A model generated the notes under the pieces. The model was not told where the DNA came from. It worked only from the letters and a program-made list of their open reading frames with translations, and searched no databases. Positions 8,357-64,000 of a stretch of DNA of 64,000 nucleotides are shown one piece after another. The translations under genes and the position numbers were made by a program. The stretch's first letter is position 1. Every line of letters starts with the position of its first letter. Origin of the DNA: a virus. Lineage: Duplodnaviria; Caudoviricetes. Location: IMG/VR virus record IMGVR_UViG_3300044620_001883, positions 136,256 to 200,255 of that record; one strand, written 5' to 3'.

Positions 8357-8626
8357 ATGATTCGCCTTCGCTCTCTCACTGACGGTACAGTGGTACTGGT
8401 CCCAACCTCTTGTGCAGTCGAGGTGCTGGACCAGGAAGGCGCTGTCGCGTTGCTGCTCCTGCCGGATCTTGGCAAGCACTCCCTGAAGCTCGTGACCCTC
8501 ACGGAAGAGCCGACGGTGGCCCAGAACTATTCGAAGACCTTTGGTGTGCCGTTCAGCCAGGTGGTGGTGCCCGACCTGTCTGCGTTAAGCGGCGAAGCCC
8601 CGCCACCCCAACCCTTTAAGTCCTGA
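8357..8626 (+). CDS. Hypothetical protein
   Basis: 89 aa ORF tightly packed between neighbours, with typical codon usage. Confidence 0.7.
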   Translation: MIRLRSLTDGTVVLVPTSCAVEVLDQEGAVALLLLPDLGKHSLKLVTLTEEPTVAQNYSKTFGVPFSQVVVPDLSALSGEAPPPQPFKS

Positions 8627-8629
8627 CCT

Positions 8630-9481
8630 ATGTTCCAATCCGGAGTCGAAACCATCCCCAATAGCGCCACTGAACTGGAGGTGATCTTCCCGGTCGCGTT
8701 CGCGGTGGACCCGGACACAATTATCGCCGTGGTGCGCAACACTTCGGCGGACTCCCCCAAGTACATCATCCAGGCCAGCATCACTGAGCAAAGCGCCACA
8801 GCCTTCACGGTCAGTCTCGACGCCGCAACCAGCTCCGGGAACTACGAGCTGGTCTGGTTGGCTGGCAGCGCGGCCTCGATTCTCGACACCATGAGTGTGC
8901 TGGCAGGGCGCAAGCTCACCAGCTATGGGGAACTTGCGAGTCTCACCAACGCCGAGTTCAAGATGCCGCTCTTGGATGTGTCGGGCATCCCTGCTCTCAA
9001 ACTGGTGGACGCCGCCACGTTCTGGAGCGCCGTGGCGCAGCGAGCCTCCGCGGTCCCAGCCAGCCCTCTGGCCAACATCACCACCGCGATGGCCATGACG
9101 GTCCATGAAGGTTGGTTGTACATTTCAGCACAAGACCGCTGGGTCAGGCTGCCCGTGGATGACTCTCTAAATTGGACGACCCAACCTTTTTATGTTCCCT
9201 TCCGGGAGCGGGAGATTTCCTTCGTGGAGGCAACTCCAGGTGCGGATGAGATCCTGGTCGTCGCTGACCAGTTGGTGTACACGATTGAATTCGACACACC
9301 CTTTGAAGCCGGCAACGCCCCCAAGGTGTTGCTGCAGTTGATTGATCTGAATGGTGTGGCAGTCTCGCAGTACACCGCGCAGGTTACCCGGCGTGACCTT
9401 GAGGGTTTTGATGTCACGTTCTCGGCCCCGATCCAGAACTACACGCTCCAGCTGTACTACATGGCCCGCCAACTTCCTTGA
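8630..9481 (+). CDS. Fibre-associated protein with two H-type-lectin/gp53-like beta domains
   Basis: VIFPVAFAVDPDTIIAVV...SATAFTV and YTIEFDTPFEAGNAPKVLLQL...DLEGFDVTF are internally similar; directly precedes a fibre gene. Confidence 0.5.
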   Translation: MFQSGVETIPNSATELEVIFPVAFAVDPDTIIAVVRNTSADSPKYIIQASITEQSATAFTVSLDAATSSGNYELVWLAGSAASILDTMSVLAGRKLTSYGELASLTNAEFKMPLLDVSGIPALKLVDAATFWSAVAQRASAVPASPLANITTAMAMTVHEGWLYISAQDRWVRLPVDDSLNWTTQPFYVPFREREISFVEATPGADEILVVADQLVYTIEFDTPFEAGNAPKVLLQLIDLNGVAVSQYTAQVTRRDLEGFDVTFSAPIQNYTLQLYYMARQLP

Positions 9482-9486
9482 TTCAC

Positions 9487-11835
9487 ATGAAACACATCCT
9501 CACAGCCCTCCTACTCCTGACCGCCACCTTGGCGGCCCAGACCTCCACGCTCGTGATCAGCAATGGCAAGTTGGCTACAGATCTTGATGCCAACACGAAG
9601 TCGATCCTGAATGCAGGTAAGATTGGACTTGGTGGTACTGGCACCCTGGATTCAGCCCTGCATTTCCTACCTGGTGGTGCACCAACGACCAACGCCTATG
9701 GGATCAAGTGGGGCGACACTGGCGCCGTCTTGTACCAGAGTGCTACCGGCACTGTGACGCTCACGGGCAACCTGGTGGTCAGCGGCACCATCCAAGCCTC
9801 AACTGGGATTGTGGACCTCGCGGGCACCAACAGTTTCACTGGGGCCAACAGTTTTGCAGCAGCCACGACGGTTGCGGACCTGATCCTCTCGGGAACCTTC
9901 TCGGTCGCGAATGACACAGTCCGGGACAACGTCAGAGCTGCAGCAGAACTTGTCCCCGGCACAGATGTCCAAGAGTACAGCGCAAAGCTTGCGGACATCC
10001 ACAACCTGACCCCGGCAGACAGTGCATTCCTGGTCGGTAATGGTACGACGTGGGTAGCCGAGACAACCTCGACGGCTCGCACCTCTCTAGGTCTTGGTAC
10101 CGCTGACAGCCCCACCTTCACGAACCAGACCCTCACAGGCAACCTGTCCGTCACGGGCGTCTCAACCCTGACGGGACGGGTCACCGCCAGTGGTGGGATT
10201 CAATTTGCAGCCGGGGGAACCTGGGCGGCTTCTGGATCTGGAACGATCACGAATGACCCGTTGGTACTTGGGAGCACGCTGGCTGTCACGGGCGCCACGA
10301 CCCTCACAGGGGTTGTGACGTTGGGCGCAGGGGGGCTTACCCTGACTTCCAGCGGCACCACCGCCACACTGGCAGGAAAGCTGGTTGCCACTTCCCTGGA
10401 GTTGAGCACAACTCCCCTGGCCATCGCATACGGGGGACTGGGAATTTCCAGTGCTGCCGATGGAACCTTCCCGGTTAGCAACGGTACGAACTACGTAGCC
10501 ACGACTGTGACCCCGTTTGCGCTCACGATCCTAGACGACACGACGGATGCTGCAGTACGCGCCACTCTGGGGCTTTCAACCGCTGGAGGCGACCTGACGG
10601 GCACGTACCCGAATCCAACCCTGGCGGCCAATTCCGTCGCGCTCGGGACAGACACGACAGGCAACTATGTACTTTCCTTGGCTGACTCCGGCGCTGGAGC
10701 CTTTACGATCACCAATGGAGCAACGGAGGGCGGCGCCGCGACAATCGCGCTGGCCAACAACGGTGTCACGCTGAACACGCACACGGCGGGTGACTATGTC
10801 GCCACCGTGACGGCGGGGACTGGGGTCACGATCGCAGGCGCAGGCACGGAGGGCAGGGCTGCCACGATCAGCATCGGGCAAGATGTCGCAACAAGCGCAT
10901 CCCCCACTTTCACAGGGCTCACGGTCACAACCCTGACGACTACAAACCTGGTGCTGTCTTCCGGACGCGTTATGACGACCGAGTTCGCAACGAACGCCGT
11001 CGGGGTCGCGTCTTCAATCTGGGGCGGCAGCGCCGGCAACGCGCTCGTCTATGAAGGCGCCACGGCGGATTCGGATGAGACATCCTTGACTGCTGTGGAC
11101 CCAACCGCCGACAATGAGGTGCGTCTTCCGGATGGGAGCGGCACTTTGATGCTCTCGCTGCTGACCGACAACGCGCCCAACAAGACCGGCGCGGTCTGGA
11201 CGAATACCGACGCGGTCGTCTACGAGGGCACCACCGCCGACGGCATCACGCTATCCTTGGTATCACCCGATCCTGTGACGTCGAGCAAGACCGTCACGTT
11301 GCCGAACGCCACCACAACCTTGGTGGGCCGTGACACTACCGACACGCTGACGAACAAGACCCTGACGTCCCCTATCTTGACCACGCCCCTTATGGCGGAC
11401 ACGGGTGACACGACAAAGCGGATGACGACAAACCTCTCCGGCGCCACGACGGCCAAGACCCGCACCATTGTCAGCAGCCACACAGACAACCGCAGCAATA
11501 CCATCCCGGACGTGGCTGGAACATTCGAGATAGCCCAGACCACAACCACCGTGGCACTCATCGCCGACGATCAAGTTGTGACACCGGGCGCCGTCACACG
11601 CATTGCTCTGACGAGCGACGACGCCGTGGCCGCCAATCGTACTTTCACACTGAGCACCACCGGCGCCGTCACAGGTTCCATTTACTGTCTGCTAGGTCCT
11701 CCGACTGACGCTTGCGTTCTTGAGGATACAGGCATTCAAGTGCTGTCTGCTGACTGGACACCAGGGCCTGATGACACGCTGATGCTTTGGTTTGACGGCA
11801 CCAACTTCTACGAGGTTGGACGATCCGCCAATTAA
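9487..11835 (+). CDS. Tail-fibre-like protein with an N-terminal signal-peptide-like sequence
   Basis: MKHILTALLLLTATLAAQ; T/G/A-rich fibre motifs (TARTSLGLGT, LDDTTDAAVRATLGL, YEGATAD...DPTADNEVRLPDGSGT, TTDTLTNKTLTSP). Confidence 0.75.
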   Translation: MKHILTALLLLTATLAAQTSTLVISNGKLATDLDANTKSILNAGKIGLGGTGTLDSALHFLPGGAPTTNAYGIKWGDTGAVLYQSATGTVTLTGNLVVSGTIQASTGIVDLAGTNSFTGANSFAAATTVADLILSGTFSVANDTVRDNVRAAAELVPGTDVQEYSAKLADIHNLTPADSAFLVGNGTTWVAETTSTARTSLGLGTADSPTFTNQTLTGNLSVTGVSTLTGRVTASGGIQFAAGGTWAASGSGTITNDPLVLGSTLAVTGATTLTGVVTLGAGGLTLTSSGTTATLAGKLVATSLELSTTPLAIAYGGLGISSAADGTFPVSNGTNYVATTVTPFALTILDDTTDAAVRATLGLSTAGGDLTGTYPNPTLAANSVALGTDTTGNYVLSLADSGAGAFTITNGATEGGAATIALANNGVTLNTHTAGDYVATVTAGTGVTIAGAGTEGRAATISIGQDVATSASPTFTGLTVTTLTTTNLVLSSGRVMTTEFATNAVGVASSIWGGSAGNALVYEGATADSDETSLTAVDPTADNEVRLPDGSGTLMLSLLTDNAPNKTGAVWTNTDAVVYEGTTADGITLSLVSPDPVTSSKTVTLPNATTTLVGRDTTDTLTNKTLTSPILTTPLMADTGDTTKRMTTNLSGATTAKTRTIVSSHTDNRSNTIPDVAGTFEIAQTTTTVALIADDQVVTPGAVTRIALTSDDAVAANRTFTLSTTGAVTGSIYCLLGPPTDACVLEDTGIQVLSADWTPGPDDTLMLWFDGTNFYEVGRSAN

Positions 11836-13967: not shown

Positions 13968-14363
13968 ATGAAGTACATCACCACACTTATCGTCCTCATT
14001 GTCTCCGCGTTGTTCCTCAACAACTGCACTACCACCCAAAGGGATGCGTCCAAAAAGTACGCCTCCCAAATCAGCCGGGAAGTGGCCAGGTCGGCCGGTA
14101 TCGCCGCCGCCGCGGTCGCAACCAACCTGATTCAACTCAAGCTCAATGAGGCAACAGCCAAGCTGAGCGAGCAACGTGCAACTCTTGGCCCCAAGAATCC
14201 CGGTAGTGTCGTCACATTGACCAAGCTTGGCTTCCAGGAGATTGCGGTCGTGGAGGCCGAGAGGCTCCTGCGGCGCGCCGAGGTTGAGCTGGCAAAGCTC
14301 AAAGATGTTGATGCCCTGCCTGCACCTGCTGAAGCTCTTGCTCCAGTCGTGGTTACACCCTGA
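13968..14363 (+). CDS. Lipoprotein with coiled coil (possible spanin-like lysis accessory)
   Basis: MKYITTLIVLIVSALFLNNC lipobox-like Cys20; helical C-terminus; adjacent to a holin-like gene. Confidence 0.6.
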   Translation: MKYITTLIVLIVSALFLNNCTTTQRDASKKYASQISREVARSAGIAAAAVATNLIQLKLNEATAKLSEQRATLGPKNPGSVVTLTKLGFQEIAVVEAERLLRRAEVELAKLKDVDALPAPAEALAPVVVTP

Positions 14364-52790: not shown

Positions 52791-55700
52791 ATGCTCCCTC
52801 GTCGCATTGACCGTCTGCGTACTGCCTGTCCCCTGACTGCTCAGCCTGTGGGTAGCTGGTTGATACCCACGCGCTCACCTCTGCCCTGTTCGCCTGACGA
52901 GGAGGTACCTGCGCCAACATTCCGCGAGGCGGAGCAGCTGCCAGTGTCCCAACCCGCGCTGCGCATTCCTGACGCGGTGGCCATCTCCAACGCCTACTTT
53001 CGACTGCAGTGTGCCGACTTGGATGGTGGTCCGCACGGTGACCCCGCTGTCGTGGAAGCCGGGGAGATCACACGCTATCTGTACTGGATCGACGTGCCGG
53101 ACATCACCGACATGCAGCTCAATTATCTGGCAGGTCTGACGCCTGAGCAATTGCAGCCTCTGCTCGTATCCGATGTCACGGTGGACACGATCCAGAACAT
53201 CACGAAGCTACACTCGACGCAGCTGGGGTTCGTGCATGGTCTGCTGATGGGTGTGCTGGCCAACGTGCAGGATGCTGTCTTTTCTGCCGCCGTCTCTCGG
53301 ATTCGTTGTGTCTGGAAAAACTCCATCCAAACCGCCACATGCCCGGATCCGGCTGCCGCACGCACCAACCAAAGCGAGGCGGCCGTGCGCGCGGGTGTAC
53401 TGAATCCCGTCACGATACTTGCTGGAGCCTTTGAAAGCGCGGACAGCCAGTCAGCCGCTGACGGTCTTGCCCGCCTCGAAGCCGCACGCAGGCTGACATG
53501 CCTGTTTGGCAACGACGCCTTCGAACTGCGCTGCACTGACGTGGGATACCAAGAGGACGTGCCGACGGATCCGGAGGACGCACCTGCGGCGCCGGATGGT
53601 CGGCGTCGTGTCGGTGCCGTGTTTGTTGAGGCCGACACGGTGTTCGCATCCTCCAAAGCGGAAGCGGCAACGCTGGCCCGGGGGCAGGCCCGCCAGCAGC
53701 TCGACTGTTTTTACATCAACCAGGCCCTGAGTGTGAACTGTGCGGATTTGGACCCCACCCATGCGGGTGTCTTTGTGCTGCCGGTCGACTATGACGCGCA
53801 GGTGGCGGGTAATCCGGTTCAGGTGCCGGCGGGTCGGTTCATCGTTTCCAACACCACTGACAATCAGGCCACCGCTGACGCGCTGGCACGCACCACAGCG
53901 GCGCTCTTGCTGGACTGCCAGTTCCGCAATGTCCGACAGGTTGTGCGTTGCGAGGCCGTCACGATTGGTGGTGTGGTGTTGCCTCCGGCGGATGCCTTGA
54001 AAGAGGTCATCGTCGAGGAAGGAGAGGTGGCGGCAGGAACCCAGGAGGAGGCAGACGCGCTGGCGGTCGAGCTTGGACGGCTTCAGCTCAACTGCCAGTA
54101 CTGCAACGCTTACATCCCACCCTCCTGCTACCCGCCCAACTACGCACCGCCGGAAGGTCAGGCCATCCCGCTGTCAGATGTCACGGCGGACTGGAGTGTG
54201 GACGTGGTGCTGGGGCTGACAGCTGGCACGCTCTGCATGGATGACCCCGCGCAAGTACCGGCGGTGGCGCAAACTATCGCGATCCAGCGTGTCGAGCCAC
54301 CGGAGGCCGGCTGTGTGTACGTCAATGACGAGATGTGGTTCGGTTGTCTGGACGTTCTTCCCGGCGGCGGCACGCTACCCCGTGGAGGGTACCACGCTCC
54401 GTCTTACCCAGGCAACACGCCGGTGGCGGGTTACGAAAGCGTGCCGCTGGCCGATCAGCTGTCGCCGTTCTGCATACCCGACGTCGCGCTTGGCTCCAAG
54501 TCCTACATCGTACTGCCCGCGGGACAGTACCCGATCAACTCCAAAGACGTTCCACCAGGCATGTCCCCGAAACTGTACGCGAACGAGCAGGCGCGCCTCT
54601 ACGGGATGTCGCTTCTGCGTTGTACGTTCGCAAACCCGGAGATGGAGCTTGATTGTGCGTCTGCCTACAACCCACCGTTCGTTCAGGCACAGGTGGCGCA
54701 GGGGAACGGTGAGACTATTTCTGTTCAAGTGCCACGGGCACGCCACGAATCCGCCTTCAGCTTCAGAGACGCTATCCGGGGTGCCCAGCTTGAGGCGCAG
54801 ACTCAGCTGGTGTGTCGTTATGAGAACCCCGAGTTGATTGTACGCTGCTGGCCGCTCTACGGGCAAGCCGGTCAGAGCCCTGCGTTGGTTTCCGGTCTGT
54901 CCTCCGCCACTCTGTTGGTCTACGGGGATGGCACCGCGACCCGCAACTGGGTCGCGGGAACGATCCCTTACTCAGAGGTGGTCACTTTGCAGGACTGGCA
55001 ACCCGGCAGCGTCGCGACACCGGTGGTGGTGCCGCGCGGTACCTTCACATCCTTGCTGTCCAAAGAGGCGGCGATTGCGCAGGCGCTCAATTACGCGATC
55101 TCCAACATGGATTGTACCGGACAGGCGCGTGACACCAACGTCTGCAATGACCCGCTGCTGATCTTCTGTGGTGGTGTGGTGGAGCCCAATCCGGCTTCCC
55201 CGTACCAACCGGGGACAAATTCCGTCATCACGGCAAACCAATCCGTGGCTCCCGGTGGACGTATCCGCATGGGCAACGGTCACAATTATGTCATGAGCCG
55301 CAACCAGGCCACAGGGGTCTGGAGCATGCTGGATCTAGGCTGCTCAAACGATCCGCTGGGAGGCTGCTCTGGGAGTGGACTTATCGTACCGCCGTGTATT
55401 GCCACGGCCCAGACTCGGGATGAGGCCAATGCCCTGGCCTACCAGATCATGCGGTCACAATTGAACTGTGCCGGTTCCGCGGATGTGCCCGACTTGTCGG
55501 GGTTGGGTGGCGGCGGTGGGGGCGACGACGGGGGTGGTGGGGGCGGCGGTGGAAGCGACAATGACGGCGCACCTGAATACTGCCCGCTGACCGTTTACCA
55601 AAAGAAGGACAGAGACGGTAAAATCATAAAGGGCAGGTTCGGCATCACAGGAGGTTTCGTCAACCGCAAGGCGGTCAGGTACGGCTCCCGCAACGGTTCG

Positions 55701-56012
55701 GTCATTTCCAAGCTGGCCCCACCCACGATCAGCCTCACCAATGGTACCATTTACCTGACCAGCGAATGGGATCTCACGTTCACACTTGGTTACTTGGACC
55801 TGGCGACTGCGACCGCTCACTTTGTGCGCAGCACAGGCGGAGGACTTCCGACTGATAATCTCAAGGACGGTGTGTTTCACCTGGCTTTGGCCACGGTGAG
55901 TGGCGGGGTGTTGGTCGACAACTTCACTTCCTGCAGCAATCTGTCGGAGTTCGTGTACGACGCACAAACTGAAGATGAAGAAGCGGTTATCGTTATCGTG
56001 AAAGGCTACTGA
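52791..56012 (+). CDS. Large Cys-repeat tail/baseplate protein (DUF5977-like repeats)
   Basis: Eight C-x-[FWY]-x-N-x6-C units, most preceded by V-x-V-x-(A/E/R)G...S-x-x-(E/A)A-x-x-(L/Q)A; poly-Gly linker; distinct C-terminal domain. Confidence 0.7.
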   Translation: MLPRRIDRLRTACPLTAQPVGSWLIPTRSPLPCSPDEEVPAPTFREAEQLPVSQPALRIPDAVAISNAYFRLQCADLDGGPHGDPAVVEAGEITRYLYWIDVPDITDMQLNYLAGLTPEQLQPLLVSDVTVDTIQNITKLHSTQLGFVHGLLMGVLANVQDAVFSAAVSRIRCVWKNSIQTATCPDPAAARTNQSEAAVRAGVLNPVTILAGAFESADSQSAADGLARLEAARRLTCLFGNDAFELRCTDVGYQEDVPTDPEDAPAAPDGRRRVGAVFVEADTVFASSKAEAATLARGQARQQLDCFYINQALSVNCADLDPTHAGVFVLPVDYDAQVAGNPVQVPAGRFIVSNTTDNQATADALARTTAALLLDCQFRNVRQVVRCEAVTIGGVVLPPADALKEVIVEEGEVAAGTQEEADALAVELGRLQLNCQYCNAYIPPSCYPPNYAPPEGQAIPLSDVTADWSVDVVLGLTAGTLCMDDPAQVPAVAQTIAIQRVEPPEAGCVYVNDEMWFGCLDVLPGGGTLPRGGYHAPSYPGNTPVAGYESVPLADQLSPFCIPDVALGSKSYIVLPAGQYPINSKDVPPGMSPKLYANEQARLYGMSLLRCTFANPEMELDCASAYNPPFVQAQVAQGNGETISVQVPRARHESAFSFRDAIRGAQLEAQTQLVCRYENPELIVRCWPLYGQAGQSPALVSGLSSATLLVYGDGTATRNWVAGTIPYSEVVTLQDWQPGSVATPVVVPRGTFTSLLSKEAAIAQALNYAISNMDCTGQARDTNVCNDPLLIFCGGVVEPNPASPYQPGTNSVITANQSVAPGGRIRMGNGHNYVMSRNQATGVWSMLDLGCSNDPLGGCSGSGLIVPPCIATAQTRDEANALAYQIMRSQLNCAGSADVPDLSGLGGGGGGDDGGGGGGGGSDNDGAPEYCPLTVYQKKDRDGKIIKGRFGITGGFVNRKAVRYGSRNGSVISKLAPPTISLTNGTIYLTSEWDLTFTLGYLDLATATAHFVRSTGGGLPTDNLKDGVFHLALATVSGGVLVDNFTSCSNLSEFVYDAQTEDEEAVIVIVKGY

Positions 56013-58444: not shown

Positions 58445-58788
58445 AACTGAAACCCTTCAAAACCTCCGCCGACGGTTACAGCGGCATCGACACCGTTATC
58501 CGGAACATGATGGGCAAAGAAGGGCACACGTTGTTCGGTGACACCTATGATGATGGCACCACCACCTTCCCGACCCTGAAACCTGAGGGCGAAAAACGCA
58601 GCAAGCAGGCCGGTTTGGCGCGGGAACGGCTGGGGCCCCGCGTGAAGCTCGGTTATCAGATGGCGTTGCAGCGCGACGCCATGTACGCTTACGCCTCCCG
58701 TGGACGTCTGAACCTGCACGCCTGGCAATCTGACATCATGCTATCTTTGGACGCCGGCCGACAACTTGAATACGCTCAACTCGCATGA
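58441..58788 (+). CDS. Hypothetical protein
   Basis: 115 aa, coupled on both sides. Confidence 0.65.
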   Translation: MKLKPFKTSADGYSGIDTVIRNMMGKEGHTLFGDTYDDGTTTFPTLKPEGEKRSKQAGLARERLGPRVKLGYQMALQRDAMYAYASRGRLNLHAWQSDIMLSLDAGRQLEYAQLA

Positions 58789-59174
58789 CGGGACTACGCT
58801 TACAGTTTGACGGGCTCCAAGGGTGGCATCTGCTGCCGGGAGAAGCCGTGTCGGGCTTCGACGCATCTGTGCAGTGTGCGTTGGTCGGGCTTGGAACCGA
58901 CAAGGGATCCAACCTGCTCGTCCCCGACTTTGGCACGGATCTGCTGGCCGCCGGTCTATTTGGTCTGCTGTCAGACATCACCAACACGCAGCATCTGGCG
59001 AATTTCGCGGCGGCGGAAACCAAAGAGGTGATCAATAACAACACAGAGGACGGTACAGAGATCAGCAACCTGTACCTCCAGCCAGAAGTGTTTGCTCCCC
59101 CGTTCATCAGCTTCTCGGCCTCAATGGTATCGACGAAGAGAGAGACACGAGGTATCGTGCTGACAGCCAACTAA
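58785..59174 (+). CDS. Baseplate wedge gp25/gpW-like protein
   Basis: LGTDKGSNLLVPDFGTDL; directly before baseplate J. Confidence 0.7.
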   Translation: MTGLRLQFDGLQGWHLLPGEAVSGFDASVQCALVGLGTDKGSNLLVPDFGTDLLAAGLFGLLSDITNTQHLANFAAAETKEVINNNTEDGTEISNLYLQPEVFAPPFISFSASMVSTKRETRGIVLTAN

Positions 59175-59183
59175 TCGTCCCGT

Positions 59184-60908
59184 ATGTCCTTCGACCTCAT
59201 CTCCACCTATTTCCCACCGGCAGCTGATCTGACACCTGAGGAGCTGCAGAGCGCGCGTGCGCGTCTGGGCAGTTGGTACAAGACCGTGGATGCCGAGCTG
59301 GACATGCGCCCGGGCTCTGTGTTTGGAACCTGGGCTCTAGACCCCTTTGCACGCTTCATCGCAGGGCTCGAGGTTGCACTGTCTCGTCAGCGGGCGGATT
59401 TGGATGTGGGCGGGATCGCCCAGGGTGTCGTCTACGACTGCGACTTCGCGGAAGCCTACCTGGCAGCACTTGGTGGAAAGCGGCAGGAGGCCTTGAACAC
59501 GGTGGGTTACGTGCGGTTGGAATTCTCATCGAACGTGGATGTCGACATTCCCGGTGGTCTTCGCATTCTCTTCAATGACCAGGACGTCTTCTTGCCGCTG
59601 ACTTTCCCTGCGGGACCTCTGCGTATCCGCAAAATGGGCACTGTGGCCGCCACATCCACGACGCTGCCGCTGCGCATGATCGGACTGTCCCGCTACGCTG
59701 TCGTGCTACCTGTGACGGGTTTTGCTGCCACCGTGCTGGCTGGAGCCAAGGCGCAATGGGACAGCGACATCACAGGACTGGCATCCATCACCGCAATCAG
59801 TGATTTCGTGGCAGGACGAAGCAACAACTCGGTGCCCGCTATTGCGGCCCGCACCGCCCAAACTTTCCACGCCTCCGGCTTCGCGACCCGCTCGGGCATC
59901 CGCCGGGAAATTGAGCTGGCCCTCCCCGACATCACGGGGGTCACGACCACGATGGCCAGCGACCCCGAGATGCTCCGGACTGGCAGCACCGCGCTCGGGG
60001 TCGGCGACGGTGTCGTGGATGTCCATGTACGGTCGAGCTGCCGTACTACCTATGAGCAGTCCCTCTACGTCGAGTATATTCCAGACCAGAACGCCGTCGA
60101 GGTCGAGCGGTTCCTGACCGCCTGGACACCCCTGGCACAACCGACCCGGATCCTCGATATCCGGTGGACCGGGGACCTGACGGTACCGCTCACCTACAAG
60201 ATCTACAGCCGCAGCGCTGCCCCGGTCCGTGCACCCCTCCTGACCTGCGCGTTCTCGAACCTCGAACAGTACGAGATCGCGATCGAGATGCCCAAGACCC
60301 CCGCGGGCGTGCCCCGAATCAACCTGGAGCAGCTCACCAGCGGTGACTTCGCGTGGTTCAAGATCACCTATGAGGGCGACGCAGCCGTCGCGGCAGTCCA
60401 GCAGTACGCCGACCACGAAACACCCGCGGGCCTGGATGTCCTGATCAAGGCCCCGATCCAACTCGTGATCACGAAACTGGTCTTCAATTACACGAGACAG
60501 CCCGGGATCCTGTTCAACACCGAGCAGGCCCAGCAGGACATCGAGCAGTACGTGGCAAACCTCATGGCACCCGCCCGCCTCTCCGCTGCGGACCTGCAGG
60601 ACCGCCTCTACAGTGCGGGCGCTGAACGGATCCTTTCCGTCGAGACCCGCGCACAGCTCCTCCTGAGTGTCGCGGACTACTGCGTCCCGGAGGACACAGC
60701 CGCGATCCTGGATGACTATGCTGCAGTGGTCGCGGCGGCGCGCTCCGTTCCACTCGTGGTCCTCAATGACATTCAGGGATTGAACCCCACCTATACGGAT
60801 CTGCGCGTGGGCGAAGCTGACGAAACCCTCGGGGCCGCCGGACGCCGCAACATCGCCTACACGCTGATTCCCGGCGCCCTGGCTTTCCACTACGATGAAA
60901 CAGCCTAA
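59184..60908 (+). CDS. Baseplate J/gp6-like wedge protein
   Basis: LDMRPGSVFG...; GFATRSGIRREIE...PDITGV...DPEMLR; GVVDVHV. Confidence 0.75.
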   Translation: MSFDLISTYFPPAADLTPEELQSARARLGSWYKTVDAELDMRPGSVFGTWALDPFARFIAGLEVALSRQRADLDVGGIAQGVVYDCDFAEAYLAALGGKRQEALNTVGYVRLEFSSNVDVDIPGGLRILFNDQDVFLPLTFPAGPLRIRKMGTVAATSTTLPLRMIGLSRYAVVLPVTGFAATVLAGAKAQWDSDITGLASITAISDFVAGRSNNSVPAIAARTAQTFHASGFATRSGIRREIELALPDITGVTTTMASDPEMLRTGSTALGVGDGVVDVHVRSSCRTTYEQSLYVEYIPDQNAVEVERFLTAWTPLAQPTRILDIRWTGDLTVPLTYKIYSRSAAPVRAPLLTCAFSNLEQYEIAIEMPKTPAGVPRINLEQLTSGDFAWFKITYEGDAAVAAVQQYADHETPAGLDVLIKAPIQLVITKLVFNYTRQPGILFNTEQAQQDIEQYVANLMAPARLSAADLQDRLYSAGAERILSVETRAQLLLSVADYCVPEDTAAILDDYAAVVAAARSVPLVVLNDIQGLNPTYTDLRVGEADETLGAAGRRNIAYTLIPGALAFHYDETA

Positions 60909-62286
60909 CCTGACCCAGTACCTGGATACCGCCGATTCCGCCGCCGGTACTGGGCTGTGGCGGCAAGCCCTCCCGCCTGAGGAGTTGCGGTTGTTGCTGG
61001 CAATGTCGCAGAGTCTGCAGGGAGTTGGAGTAGCGGCGCTCCTGCAGCGGCTCCTCACTGTGGAGCATATGCTCCGCGTGCCTGCGGTGGTGCTGCCGGA
61101 TCAAATTGAGGTGATCGGCATGGACGTGGAGAAGTCCATACGGATCATTGAAGGGAACGCCGCCAGCAGTGCCTCCGATGCCGTGGGCACGGAGCACCTT
61201 CGCGCACTCTACTTCCCCCGCAGAGTCGTGCATACGCTGGACGGTACGGCTGTTTGGATGGACGAGGATGGCCTGCTTGTGATGCTCAATGGCAATCTGC
61301 CTCTGCTGCCTGACCCGAATGCGCTGGTGACGACGACCGCGTGGCATACCTGGTATGCCATCCCATGCATGGCATCGCAGGAAATTATCACCATTGAACT
61401 TCTCTCCGGTGAGACGCTTCTGGTTGGAGTGGATTTCTACCAGTCCGCCGATCGCTTGATCTTCCGGGAACACCCGCTCAGCTACGACGCGACGGGAAGT
61501 TTGACGTTTGTTTACCGCCAATACGCTCCCACCCCCGCTGCCTACAGCCTGCGCCAGGACATCGCTTTCATGCGACAGGCCAGTGTCGCCCAAGTGAGCC
61601 GCCGCGTGCCCACCGTTGAACGCTTGCAGCAAATGCTTTGCGACCTGGCCGGGCTGTGTTGTCTCGAACACGCCGACACCATCCAAAGTTTTACGGTGTT
61701 GGATACGGGTGTGCGGTATTCAGGACTGTCGCGAGATTATCTCGTCCCCTACGACCACACTCCGGTCGCGGTGGGAACAAACCTGGCGTCCGGGTATGTA
61801 TTTGGGGAGGGTATCAAACTGCACAGCCGTGGGACCGCCGGGGCGAACTGGTGGCAGAATCTTGACTGGTCGGTGGGGTTGGCGTTGGACGCAGTCTGCC
61901 CCGTCCCTGGGCTCACGATGCCCGGACGGCCGATCCGTGCGCTGGGGTATGACGACAATGGCACCGTGCGCGTGCATCTTTTCCCTGAAGGCACACCAGC
62001 CAACATTGCGCGGTATCAAACATGGTGCCGGGATCAAGAACGGCGCCTGCCTGCGTCGAAACATCTCGCACCACTCCTGGATGCCCGCGATCCTGGTAGC
62101 ATGGACGAGGCAGGTGACGAGCTGCAGGTGGATGGGTTGGAACTTCTGTTCAACCAAGTCTGGGGGCGGCGCGTCATCATAGCCGACATCCGGAACTCAG
62201 TGCCGATGCGAGTTGTAGCGGCACTGCGTGAGTGGTGCCCAACCACCGCTGTGCTGCTGATTCGCCACTTGCCTGACCTACCCTAG
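60895..62286 (+). CDS. Baseplate wedge (gp7/gpI-like) protein (inferred)
   Basis: 463 aa following baseplate J. Confidence 0.5.
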   Translation: MKQPNLTQYLDTADSAAGTGLWRQALPPEELRLLLAMSQSLQGVGVAALLQRLLTVEHMLRVPAVVLPDQIEVIGMDVEKSIRIIEGNAASSASDAVGTEHLRALYFPRRVVHTLDGTAVWMDEDGLLVMLNGNLPLLPDPNALVTTTAWHTWYAIPCMASQEIITIELLSGETLLVGVDFYQSADRLIFREHPLSYDATGSLTFVYRQYAPTPAAYSLRQDIAFMRQASVAQVSRRVPTVERLQQMLCDLAGLCCLEHADTIQSFTVLDTGVRYSGLSRDYLVPYDHTPVAVGTNLASGYVFGEGIKLHSRGTAGANWWQNLDWSVGLALDAVCPVPGLTMPGRPIRALGYDDNGTVRVHLFPEGTPANIARYQTWCRDQERRLPASKHLAPLLDARDPGSMDEAGDELQVDGLELLFNQVWGRRVIIADIRNSVPMRVVAALREWCPTTAVLLIRHLPDLP

Positions 62287-62304: not shown

Positions 62305-62829
62305 GTGAATGTCACATTGATAAAACAAGAGCCGCGGATTCAGTCTCTGCCGACGCACGGCAACACTGCATTATGGCTACTCACGGTCACAGCTGTCGTG
62401 ACGGACAATCTAGGAGCGGCGGACAGCAACATTTTCGTCTATCAGGCCTCCCCTCGTTTGGGTTTGGGAGATCGTTTCGCCGCCGTCGCCAGCGCCGCTC
62501 AGATGCTTGATCTGCCCGCTGTAAAAGATGGGGGCTCCTATTACAGGCACAACATGGCCGTGCTTCTCTGCCGGTCAGCGGCTGAACTGAGCGCGGTGTG
62601 GCAGGGGCTGCAGGATGACGCGCGACTGTTGGTGGCAGACTGGAGCAAGCTGGCTGCGGCCAGTACTAGCGACTTGGCGTTCATCACGCCAGGCCAGGCG
62701 GTCGAGGCCATCGCCGATGAAGCTGATCGGCAGGTCCGCGCCGTGTTCAGCGCCGACTTTAGCATGATCGAATTCTACAACGCTGCGGGTGTAAAAATCG
62801 GCGAGCAGCTTATCACACGTTCCATCTAA
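62305..62829 (+). CDS. Hypothetical protein (possible fibre attachment)
   Basis: 174 aa between baseplate and fibre genes. Confidence 0.6.
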   Translation: MNVTLIKQEPRIQSLPTHGNTALWLLTVTAVVTDNLGAADSNIFVYQASPRLGLGDRFAAVASAAQMLDLPAVKDGGSYYRHNMAVLLCRSAAELSAVWQGLQDDARLLVADWSKLAAASTSDLAFITPGQAVEAIADEADRQVRAVFSADFSMIEFYNAAGVKIGEQLITRSI

Positions 62830-62831
62830 CC

Positions 62832-64000
62832 ATGAAGTCTTTATTGCGCGCTCTACTCCTGCTTGTTAGCACCAACCTGCTGGCTCAGGTTCAAGGTGAT
62901 TTTACTATTCCGTACAAGGACACAAGCGGACGCCCGCCGATCCTGCGCAATTGGCAGGCCACAGCCTCGTCCCTGTGGGGTACAAACAGCTCCAAACAGC
63001 CTGTGTCCATTACCATTGGCGCCGGTTTGCTCTTGAGTGGAAACGTGTTGCGCGGTACCGGAGGTACCGGAGGTACGGTGACATGGGGTGACATCACCGG
63101 AACTTTGGCAAATCAGACGGATCTACAGGCTGCTTTATCCACCAAACAACCGCTGGCAGCTGCGCTCACCACGCTGAGCACAGCTACAGCGGCCGGACTT
63201 GCCTTGATGGATGACGCCAATGCGGCGGCCCAGAGATCTACTCTGGGTCTGGGTACCTTGGCCACACAGTCTGCGACTATCACAGACTACCTGCTGACGA
63301 CCACTGCGACTGCGACATTTGCCCCGGTAGCGTCTCCTACATTCACAGGCACTGTTGTCATTCCAGCTGGTGCGGACATCGCCGGGTACCAAAGCACGGC
63401 AGGCACCTTGGCCTTAGCTGGTTTCAGCTCGATCACAGGCACGCTCTCTGATGGGAACATAGCAAGCGCCGCAGCATGGAACGCCAAACAATCCGCTCTC
63501 GTTTTTGGGACTGGGTTGACCAACACAGCTGGGACTGTTTCCGTTAACGTCTCACAGGCCATCACCTCGTTGAGTAATCTGACCAGTAACGGTTTTGTGA
63601 AAACCACCGGAGGCAGCGGCGCGTTGACGGTGGACACCACATCGTACGAGCCCGCCATAGGTGCCGGTACGTTGGCTCTTTCCAAGCTCGCCACCGATCC
63701 GCTGGCGCGGGCGAACCACACCGGTACGCAAGCCTGGAGCACCATCACAAGCACGCCGACGACGCTCTTGGGTTATGGTATCACTGATGGTATTACAGCC
63801 GCTGTTGTGGGGGCCACGTATGAGCCCATCTTAGTTGCTGGTACCACAGGACAATACTACCGGGGAGACAAGAGCTGGCAGACTCTCAACGCCACGGCTG
63901 TCGGTCTCGGCAACGTGAGCAATGCGCTCCAGCTCGTCGCGGCGAACAACCTCAGTGACTTAGCCAGCGTATCGACCGCTCGTAGCAACCTTGGCCTCGC
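62832..64000 (+). CDS. Tail-fibre-like protein with an N-terminal signal-peptide-like sequence, 3'-truncated (not in the supplied track)
   Basis: Manually translated: MKSLLRALLLLVSTNLLAQ...VTWGDITGTLANQTDLQAAL...LMDDANAAAQRSTLGL...ARANHTGTQ...TPTTLLGYGITD...YYRGDKSWQ...NNLSDLASVSTARSNLGL; open to the window end. Confidence 0.85.
   Translation, partial: MKSLLRALLLLVSTNLLAQVQGDFTIPYKDTSGRPPILRNWQATASSLWGTNSSKQPVSITIGAGLLLSGNVLRGTGGTGGTVTWGDITGTLANQTDLQAALSTKQPLAAALTTLSTATAAGLALMDDANAAAQRSTLGLGTLATQSATITDYLLTTTATATFAPVASPTFTGTVVIPAGADIAGYQSTAGTLALAGFSSITGTLSDGNIASAAAWNAKQSALVFGTGLTNTAGTVSVNVSQAITSLSNLTSNGFVKTTGGSGALTVDTTSYEPAIGAGTLALSKLATDPLARANHTGTQAWSTITSTPTTLLGYGITDGITAAVVGATYEPILVAGTTGQYYRGDKSWQTLNATAVGLGNVSNALQLVAANNLSDLASVSTARSNLGL

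Follow-up and report, generated by a model that had tools for sequence, protein, structure and literature searches.

Tail-fibre-like proteins of an uncultured jumbo phage carry predicted Sec signal peptides

Introduction

Model phages assemble their tail fibres in the cytoplasm, and the assembly of tailed phages is taught as a purely cytoplasmic process. Why would two long fibre-like genes of one tailed phage each begin with what looks like an export signal? This question is raised by a stretch of 64,000 nucleotides (hereafter the window), the final 64 kb of one contig of 200,255 bp (G+C content of 58%) from an uncultured lake phage. In the literature that we searched, we found no published case of Sec signals on tailed-phage fibres; one paper takes the lack of signals to indicate that such proteins come from phages (PMC6199706).

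Results

Two fibre-like genes start with hydrophobic leaders

Both leaders are located where a first-pass annotation of this DNA had placed them, at the very start of long fibre-like open reading frames. Fibre 1 (9487-11835, plus strand; 782 residues) is made of a leader, a conserved N-domain, fibre repeats and a variable tip. Its leader, delimited by comparison with orthologues, is a predicted 17-residue signal peptide followed by Gln18 (9487-9540, plus strand). Upstream, the region 8357-9481 on the same strand encodes an 89-residue and a 283-residue protein, both conserved and devoid of signals, the larger one containing H-type lectin and gp53-like C domains. This gene order, upstream partners included, is kept in two related loci, L001 and L003.

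Fibre 2 is divided by the end of the contig: the first 389 of its 1021 codons occupy 62832-64000 (plus strand) and the remainder is found at the contig start, at positions 3-1955. The gene is intact in nature, since the first open reading frame of this contig supplies its last 650 codons, and both parts are spanned, with one mismatch, by P0087, an independent 1021-residue protein from the databases. From its n/h/c layout and family comparison, the fibre 2 leader is a predicted signal peptide of 18 residues plus Gln19 (62832-62888, plus strand), and cleavage is predicted on this strand between Ala18 (62883-62885) and Gln19 (62886-62888).

The genes upstream of fibre 2 (58785-62286, plus strand) encode a 129-residue protein, a 574-residue Baseplate_J-like protein (59184-60908) and a 463-residue protein (60895-62286). 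No match to these genes was obtained in Pfam or PHROGs; the 574-residue protein reached an atlas score of 0.97, and every top named cluster was Baseplate_J. With such a neighbour, the position of fibre 2 after baseplate genes, as first described, holds. The arrangement resembles a P2-type module, with a small wedge gene, a Baseplate_J-like gene, a third baseplate gene, a fibre gene and small accessory genes. In P2 the order is gpW, gpJ, gpI, the fibre gpH and the chaperone gpG, and gpH has no signal peptide. Unlike P2, our phage has an extra gene between the baseplate genes and the fibre, an open reading frame for a 174-residue protein without a signal (62305-62829, plus strand), which ends 2 nt before fibre 2 and is a candidate adaptor.

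The leaders have the layout of Sec signal peptides

We compared about 21 co-linear orthologues of fibre 1 (the most distant about 34% identical, the longest contig 220 kb) and about 18 co-linear members of the fibre 2 family. The leaders of these 39 relatives are 15-26 residues long, with 1-3 basic residues and an uncharged core of about 10-17 residues. Nearly all start with MK, MKH, MKK or MR, that is with a short basic n-region, and the h-region behind it is uncharged and hydrophobic and does not reach the length of a membrane anchor. We set the cleavage sites by eye, where the leader gives way to the conserved domain. At these hand-placed sites, position -1 is A, S or G in 38 of the 39 relatives (21/21 for fibre 1, 17/18 for fibre 2) and position -3 is A, L, I, V, T or C, a combination that we counted as agreeing with the small-residue pattern at -1/-3. 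Gln is found at +1 in 33 of the 39 (17/21 and 16/18, respectively), the other residues at +1 being A, D or L. Neither a lipobox Cys at +1 nor a twin-arginine in the n-region was found among the 39. From this layout and its conservation, both leaders are predicted to be canonical Sec/signal-peptidase-I signal peptides, and each is retained, as a predicted signal, within its own fibre family; the relatives of fibre 2 include proteins from prophages of Verrucomicrobia.

SAR endolysins are late phage proteins that use Sec and become active once the holin depolarises the membrane. Their SAR domains are weakly hydrophobic, rich in Gly and Ala, and uncleaved, whereas the fibre leaders are Leu-rich, have a mean hydropathy of 2.2-3.8 and carry a cleavage motif, so that they fall outside this class.

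Could the leader be dispensable or serve another purpose? Since fibre 2 starts 2 nt past the upstream stop codon and its next Met is residue 126, its leader cannot be skipped. This bears on a model with two products per gene, an internal start giving a signal-less virion fibre and the full precursor giving an exported free copy. Fibre 1 does have an in-frame TTG at codon 15 (9529-9531) and a GTG at codon 23 (9553-9555), but fibre 2 lacks any in-frame ATG, GTG or TTG from codon 5 up to Met126 and nothing of the kind is conserved across the families; we regard such a model as very improbable.

It is also conceivable, though in our opinion unlikely, that the leader is not used for export and acts, with Met1 kept, as a structural or tethering helix in the baseplate or at the cytoplasmic face of the membrane. 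The cytoplasmic assembly of model-phage fibres and the lack of signals on the partner proteins would fit such a role, as would the AF2 model, in which residues 2-14 of the fibre 2 leader form a helix. However, a structural helix is expected to be conserved, and the leader changes more rapidly than the adjoining domain: the mean pairwise identity is 34% for the leader versus 48% for the domain in fibre 1, and 28% versus 43% in fibre 2. This difference argues for a signal peptide rather than a structural helix. In addition, the basic start and the small residue at -1 are maintained in 38 of the 39 relatives, the leader resembles the secretory N-termini of the likely host itself (see below), and by the positive-inside rule a basic start followed by a core of 12-17 residues sends the C-terminal side outward. 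Taken as a prediction from these features, export of the fibres across the host inner membrane is probable, and we would put it at roughly three chances in four.

Relatives of fibre 2 point to a verrucomicrobial host

The leaders have features in common with the Q-rule of Bacteroidota (Bochtler et al. 2018, PMC5837995), namely the same n/h/c layout, a small residue at -1 and Gln at +1 (33/39 here), and a Bacteroidota host was our first guess. We dropped it because the genomic homologues of the fibre 2 leader and N-domain are all from Verrucomicrobiaceae, which sets the present proteins apart from the Q-rule proteins.

A degenerate DNA pattern for the fibre 2 N-domain, applied to one genome per prokaryote species, gave 13 matches, about the number estimated to occur by chance; two of them were true and both were in Prosthecobacter MAGs. 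Another relative of fibre 2 (P0127) is encoded in a prophage located next to pyrH and frr in assembly GCA_039542385.1, the ribosome recycling factor of which is 79% identical to that of Prosthecobacter. This assembly, from the Verrucomicrobiaceae, appears to be an isolate. The leader together with the N-domain was found in prophage tail regions of 6 of 145 Verrucomicrobiaceae genomes; in a sample of 301 genomes from the phylum, the query genome alone carried this combination. In the Prosthecobacter prophage, the fibre gene is preceded by a tape-measure-like gene and tail genes, and followed by a gene for a LamG-like protein with a leader and then by one for a small protein resembling phrog_6034. 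Related loci have a G+C content of 58-63%. The fibre 1 N-domain was not found in the 145 Verrucomicrobiaceae genomes. These data suggest a verrucomicrobial host, which is the best-supported assignment on sequence grounds, and the leader plus N-domain cassette provides a host clue (Verrucomicrobiaceae) for an otherwise orphan clade of jumbo phages.

In a 360-kb sample of Prosthecobacter, a crude estimate gave Gln at the predicted +1 position in about a fifth to a quarter of the signal-like proteins; at such a fraction, Gln at +1 is common in this genus and not a rule. A plant-type glutaminyl cyclase (PF05096) was absent from three Verrucomicrobiaceae genomes in which we looked for it.

The two leaders belong to a common class of signal peptide

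The leaders had been called near-identical, and the fibres were proposed to share a routing signal. In a six-frame scan of the whole 200 kb with the pattern MK-x(3,4)-ALLLL-x(4,6)-AQ, only these two leaders match, and the sequences following the Gln are unrelated, as the first-pass annotation had stated. Near-identical is nevertheless too strong a term: the leaders have 12 identities over 18-19 residues with one gap, and most of their codons differ. The codon differences led us to reject a recent copying of one leader from the other by duplication or gene conversion.

To what extent is this likeness peculiar to the two genes? The 399 cross-family pairs of fibre 1 and fibre 2 leaders have 7.7 identities on average (sd 1.7). 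Twelve is the top of the range, but further pairs, whose members come from different genomes, attain it as well. When unrelated signal-like N-termini from a Prosthecobacter genome are compared with the phage leaders, the number of identities rises to 10-11, and several of these N-termini start with MKTLL, MKSLL or MKHLL. Since pairs from different genomes score as high and Prosthecobacter proteins come close, the likeness reflects a shared class of signal peptide rather than a private code. The idea of a shared routing signal thus stands in one part, since the leaders look like a genuine and conserved export signal, and falls in the other, since there is no special code and the signal is of the generic Sec type used by the likely host family. 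Because the leaders are export-like and conserved, an envelope-related step for the fibres is a fair inference.

A connection of such a step with cysteine chemistry, which had also been suggested, did not survive the comparison. No signal-like start is present in the Cys-repeat protein (52791-56012), Cys is altogether absent from fibre 2, and the two Cys of fibre 1 are missing in close orthologues. Disulfide folding was accordingly dropped as a rationale for export, the cysteines being absent or not conserved. We also looked for a phage-encoded signal peptidase and did not find one. With no conserved Cys, no phage signal peptidase and no plant-type glutaminyl cyclase, a gain from export is not visible.

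Fibre 2 has a conserved N-domain and a candidate adaptor

Fibre 2 had been described as devoid of a recognisable N-terminal domain for docking to the baseplate. We found, on the contrary, that residues ~20-80 (62889-63071, plus strand) are conserved across the relatives (alignment A2) and are modelled by AF2 as a small beta-rich domain, with a pLDDT of 75-85 and strands between residues 24 and 75. This is likely a docking domain. A fold search of the N-terminal model against the PDB gave no match, and neither the fibre 1 nor the fibre 2 N-domain was found in deposited phage genomes. A locus search queried with single baseplate or lectin proteins likewise returned nothing.

Behind their N-domains, the proteins are mosaic. 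In fibre 1 orthologues the N-domain is retained while several unrelated tips are swapped, and residues 690-850 of fibre 2 share about 75% identity with the signal-less fibres of ~38-kb phages. Genes for a major head protein, a tail chaperone and a signal-bearing fibre cassette occur together on one 38-kb phage contig. In the location of their genes in tail or baseplate modules, and in the combination of a conserved N-terminal part with mosaic distal parts, these proteins look like virion fibres.

The 174-residue protein encoded upstream of fibre 2 had no identity in Pfam, PHROGs, NCBIfam or the atlas. Comparison of the fibre 2-type contexts, phages and prophages together, revealed that in 8 of 9 the upstream protein ends with one and the same C-terminal motif of about 30 residues, with the consensus ...RLSxDxxxIHFYNAAGIYKGS...; the version in the window, FSADFSMIEFYNAAGVKIG..., is encoded at 62746-62829 (plus strand). 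In the alignment of the upstream proteins (A5), S, Y, G and G are invariant; AF2 applied to this alignment gave a poor model (mean pLDDT of 48). Their N-terminal parts fall in unrelated groups that differ by phage type, and none of them bears a leader. One end of the protein is thus specific to the phage type and the other travels with the fibre docking domain, which suggests an adaptor role. We therefore retain the upstream protein as a candidate adaptor, for which the conserved C-terminal motif is the argument.

Genes next to the fibres also encode export-type N-termini

On the same contig, across the junction, a looser scan revealed a third fibre-like protein of 606 residues with the leader ...VQA/Q, the slash marking the predicted cut (L049 3092-4912). 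The gene that follows it encodes a 118-residue protein with the leader ...LHA/V (L049 4924-5280). A protein search gave no co-linear orthologue of the third fibre. Fibre 2 is followed by the genes of two small paralogous proteins of phrog_6034 (unknown function), without signals (L049 1943-2347 and 2551-3039). In one of them, the first 67 residues show 39% identity to the last protein of the Prosthecobacter prophage fibre cassette.

In two Verrucomicrobiaceae prophages, the gene located after the signal-bearing fibre encodes a protein with a leader of its own, a LamG/ConA-like protein in L062 (594-1370, minus strand) and a 191-residue protein in L086 (12170-12745, plus strand). Export thus seems to cover a small block of genes.

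Within the window, the sole further export-type N-terminus belongs to a small lipoprotein-like protein (13968-14363, plus strand; leader ...FLNN/C), which gave only weak NCBIfam lipoprotein matches; a spanin or an exclusion lipoprotein is a possible identity. Three consecutive open reading frames with collagen-like Gly-Pro-Pro repeats (L049 5720-6837) were also observed downstream of the fibre module; they may be further signal-less fibre or whisker proteins.

Discussion

A possible assembly of fibres in two compartments

How could an exported fibre become part of a virion? In the pathway that we propose, the fibre precursor would be threaded unfolded via SecYEG into the periplasm of a verrucomicrobial host, and the leader would be cut after a small residue (...LLA/Q in fibre 2, ...LAA/Q in fibre 1). 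The mature chain, beginning with Gln and the small conserved N-domain, would trimerise in the periplasm. It would meet the fibre-less particle, built in the cytoplasm, only at the close of infection, when the holin breaks through the inner membrane, and the N-domain would then dock on the conserved C-terminal tail of the signal-less upstream protein acting as adaptor. We infer export, cleavage, periplasmic folding and docking at lysis from the features described above. For this whole chain we have less confidence than for export itself, and put it at somewhat below even odds. The more general proposal goes further and is more tentative still: tailed phages of Verrucomicrobia, from a clade of jumbo myophages to small temperate phages, might build their receptor-binding fibres outside the cytoplasm by Sec export, signal peptidase I cleavage and periplasmic folding, and these fibres might not join the completed particle, by way of its signal-less adaptor, until the inner membrane has been opened by the holin, in a two-compartment assembly.

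Three observations count against export of virion fibres. Firstly, the upstream protein and the downstream phrog_6034 proteins are signal-less and would remain in the other compartment until lysis. Secondly, the phage has signal-less fibre candidates, namely the lectin protein encoded at 8630, the Cys-repeat protein and the collagen-like open reading frames, which could serve as virion fibres instead. Thirdly, as noted above, a gain from export is not visible. The absence of a published case for a tailed phage in the literature searched also weighs against it.

Virion fibres or envelope fibres

A precedent for the export of such proteins is found in Bdellovibrio bacteriovorus, the MAT fibres of which are Sec-exported, trimeric, phage-tail-fibre-like proteins encoded by cellular genes and located at the surface of the predator (Caulton et al. 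2024, PMC10769870). Since trimeric phage-like fibres are exported by Sec in that case, export of the present fibres is feasible. The likeness concerns architecture only: both kinds of protein have a signal peptide, a beta-rich domain directly after it, a stalk and mosaic tips. The MAT N-domain has about 130 residues and many MAT proteins end in an S74 chaperone-protease (PMC10769870), whereas here the N-domain has about 60 residues, no S74 was detected by Pfam and the genes lie in phage or prophage tail modules.

The same likeness opens another explanation. The fibres could be exported and yet not be virion parts, being instead fibres that the phage encodes for the envelope of the infected or lysogenic cell, similar to MAT fibres and anchored in the envelope by their N-domain. 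There, they might cover receptors, prevent superinfection by other phages, stop progeny from binding to debris or make cells adhere to one another. The MAT-like layout itself, in which a signal peptide precedes the conserved beta-rich N-domain, the trimeric stalk and the mosaic tip, is consistent with this proposal. So are the signals on neighbouring proteins (the 118-residue protein, the LamG-like protein of L062 and the 191-residue protein of L086), and virion fibres could be supplied by the signal-less candidates mentioned above; moreover, about 15-19% of fibre-like proteins in the databases have such leaders. However, the genes are placed within tail modules in three phage architectures, the tips are shared with ordinary virion fibres, and we found neither a type IX secretion (T9SS) C-terminal domain nor another surface-sorting signal. 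The co-inherited C-terminal motif on a signal-less upstream protein specific to the phage type fits a virion adaptor better, and on account of this motif we rank the virion interpretation above envelope fibres, which we consider a rather doubtful alternative but the main rival. Phage-encoded surface or periplasmic fibres of this kind would likewise be undescribed.

Signal peptides on other phage proteins have been reported in Porphyromonas gingivalis, where phage genes with signal peptides were read as an adaptation to the general secretion of the host (Matrishin et al. 2023, PMC10367356). In those phages, five genes of unknown function, as well as capsid and spanin genes, carry signals, and tail fibres are unmentioned (PMC10367356).

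If the fibres are exported and added at lysis, as we favour, fibre attachment would be a timed, envelope-dependent step, and host secretion and processing enzymes would become host-range factors. Expression of such fibres for phage engineering would then need a periplasmic route.

Genome ends

The genome is probably circularly permuted and complete, with a CheckV estimate of 98%. Upstream of about 247 predicted genes, Shine-Dalgarno-like motifs are hardly enriched (GGAGG 13 times versus 5 expected, GGAG 21 versus 19). The contig ends overlap inside fibre 2, over 56 nt with 43 identities, between window positions 63945-64000 and contig positions 3-58, and the differences are mostly synonymous. 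This imperfect match (43/56) is probably the reason why the circle was left unclosed, and it may reflect a mixture of strains at a fibre repeat.
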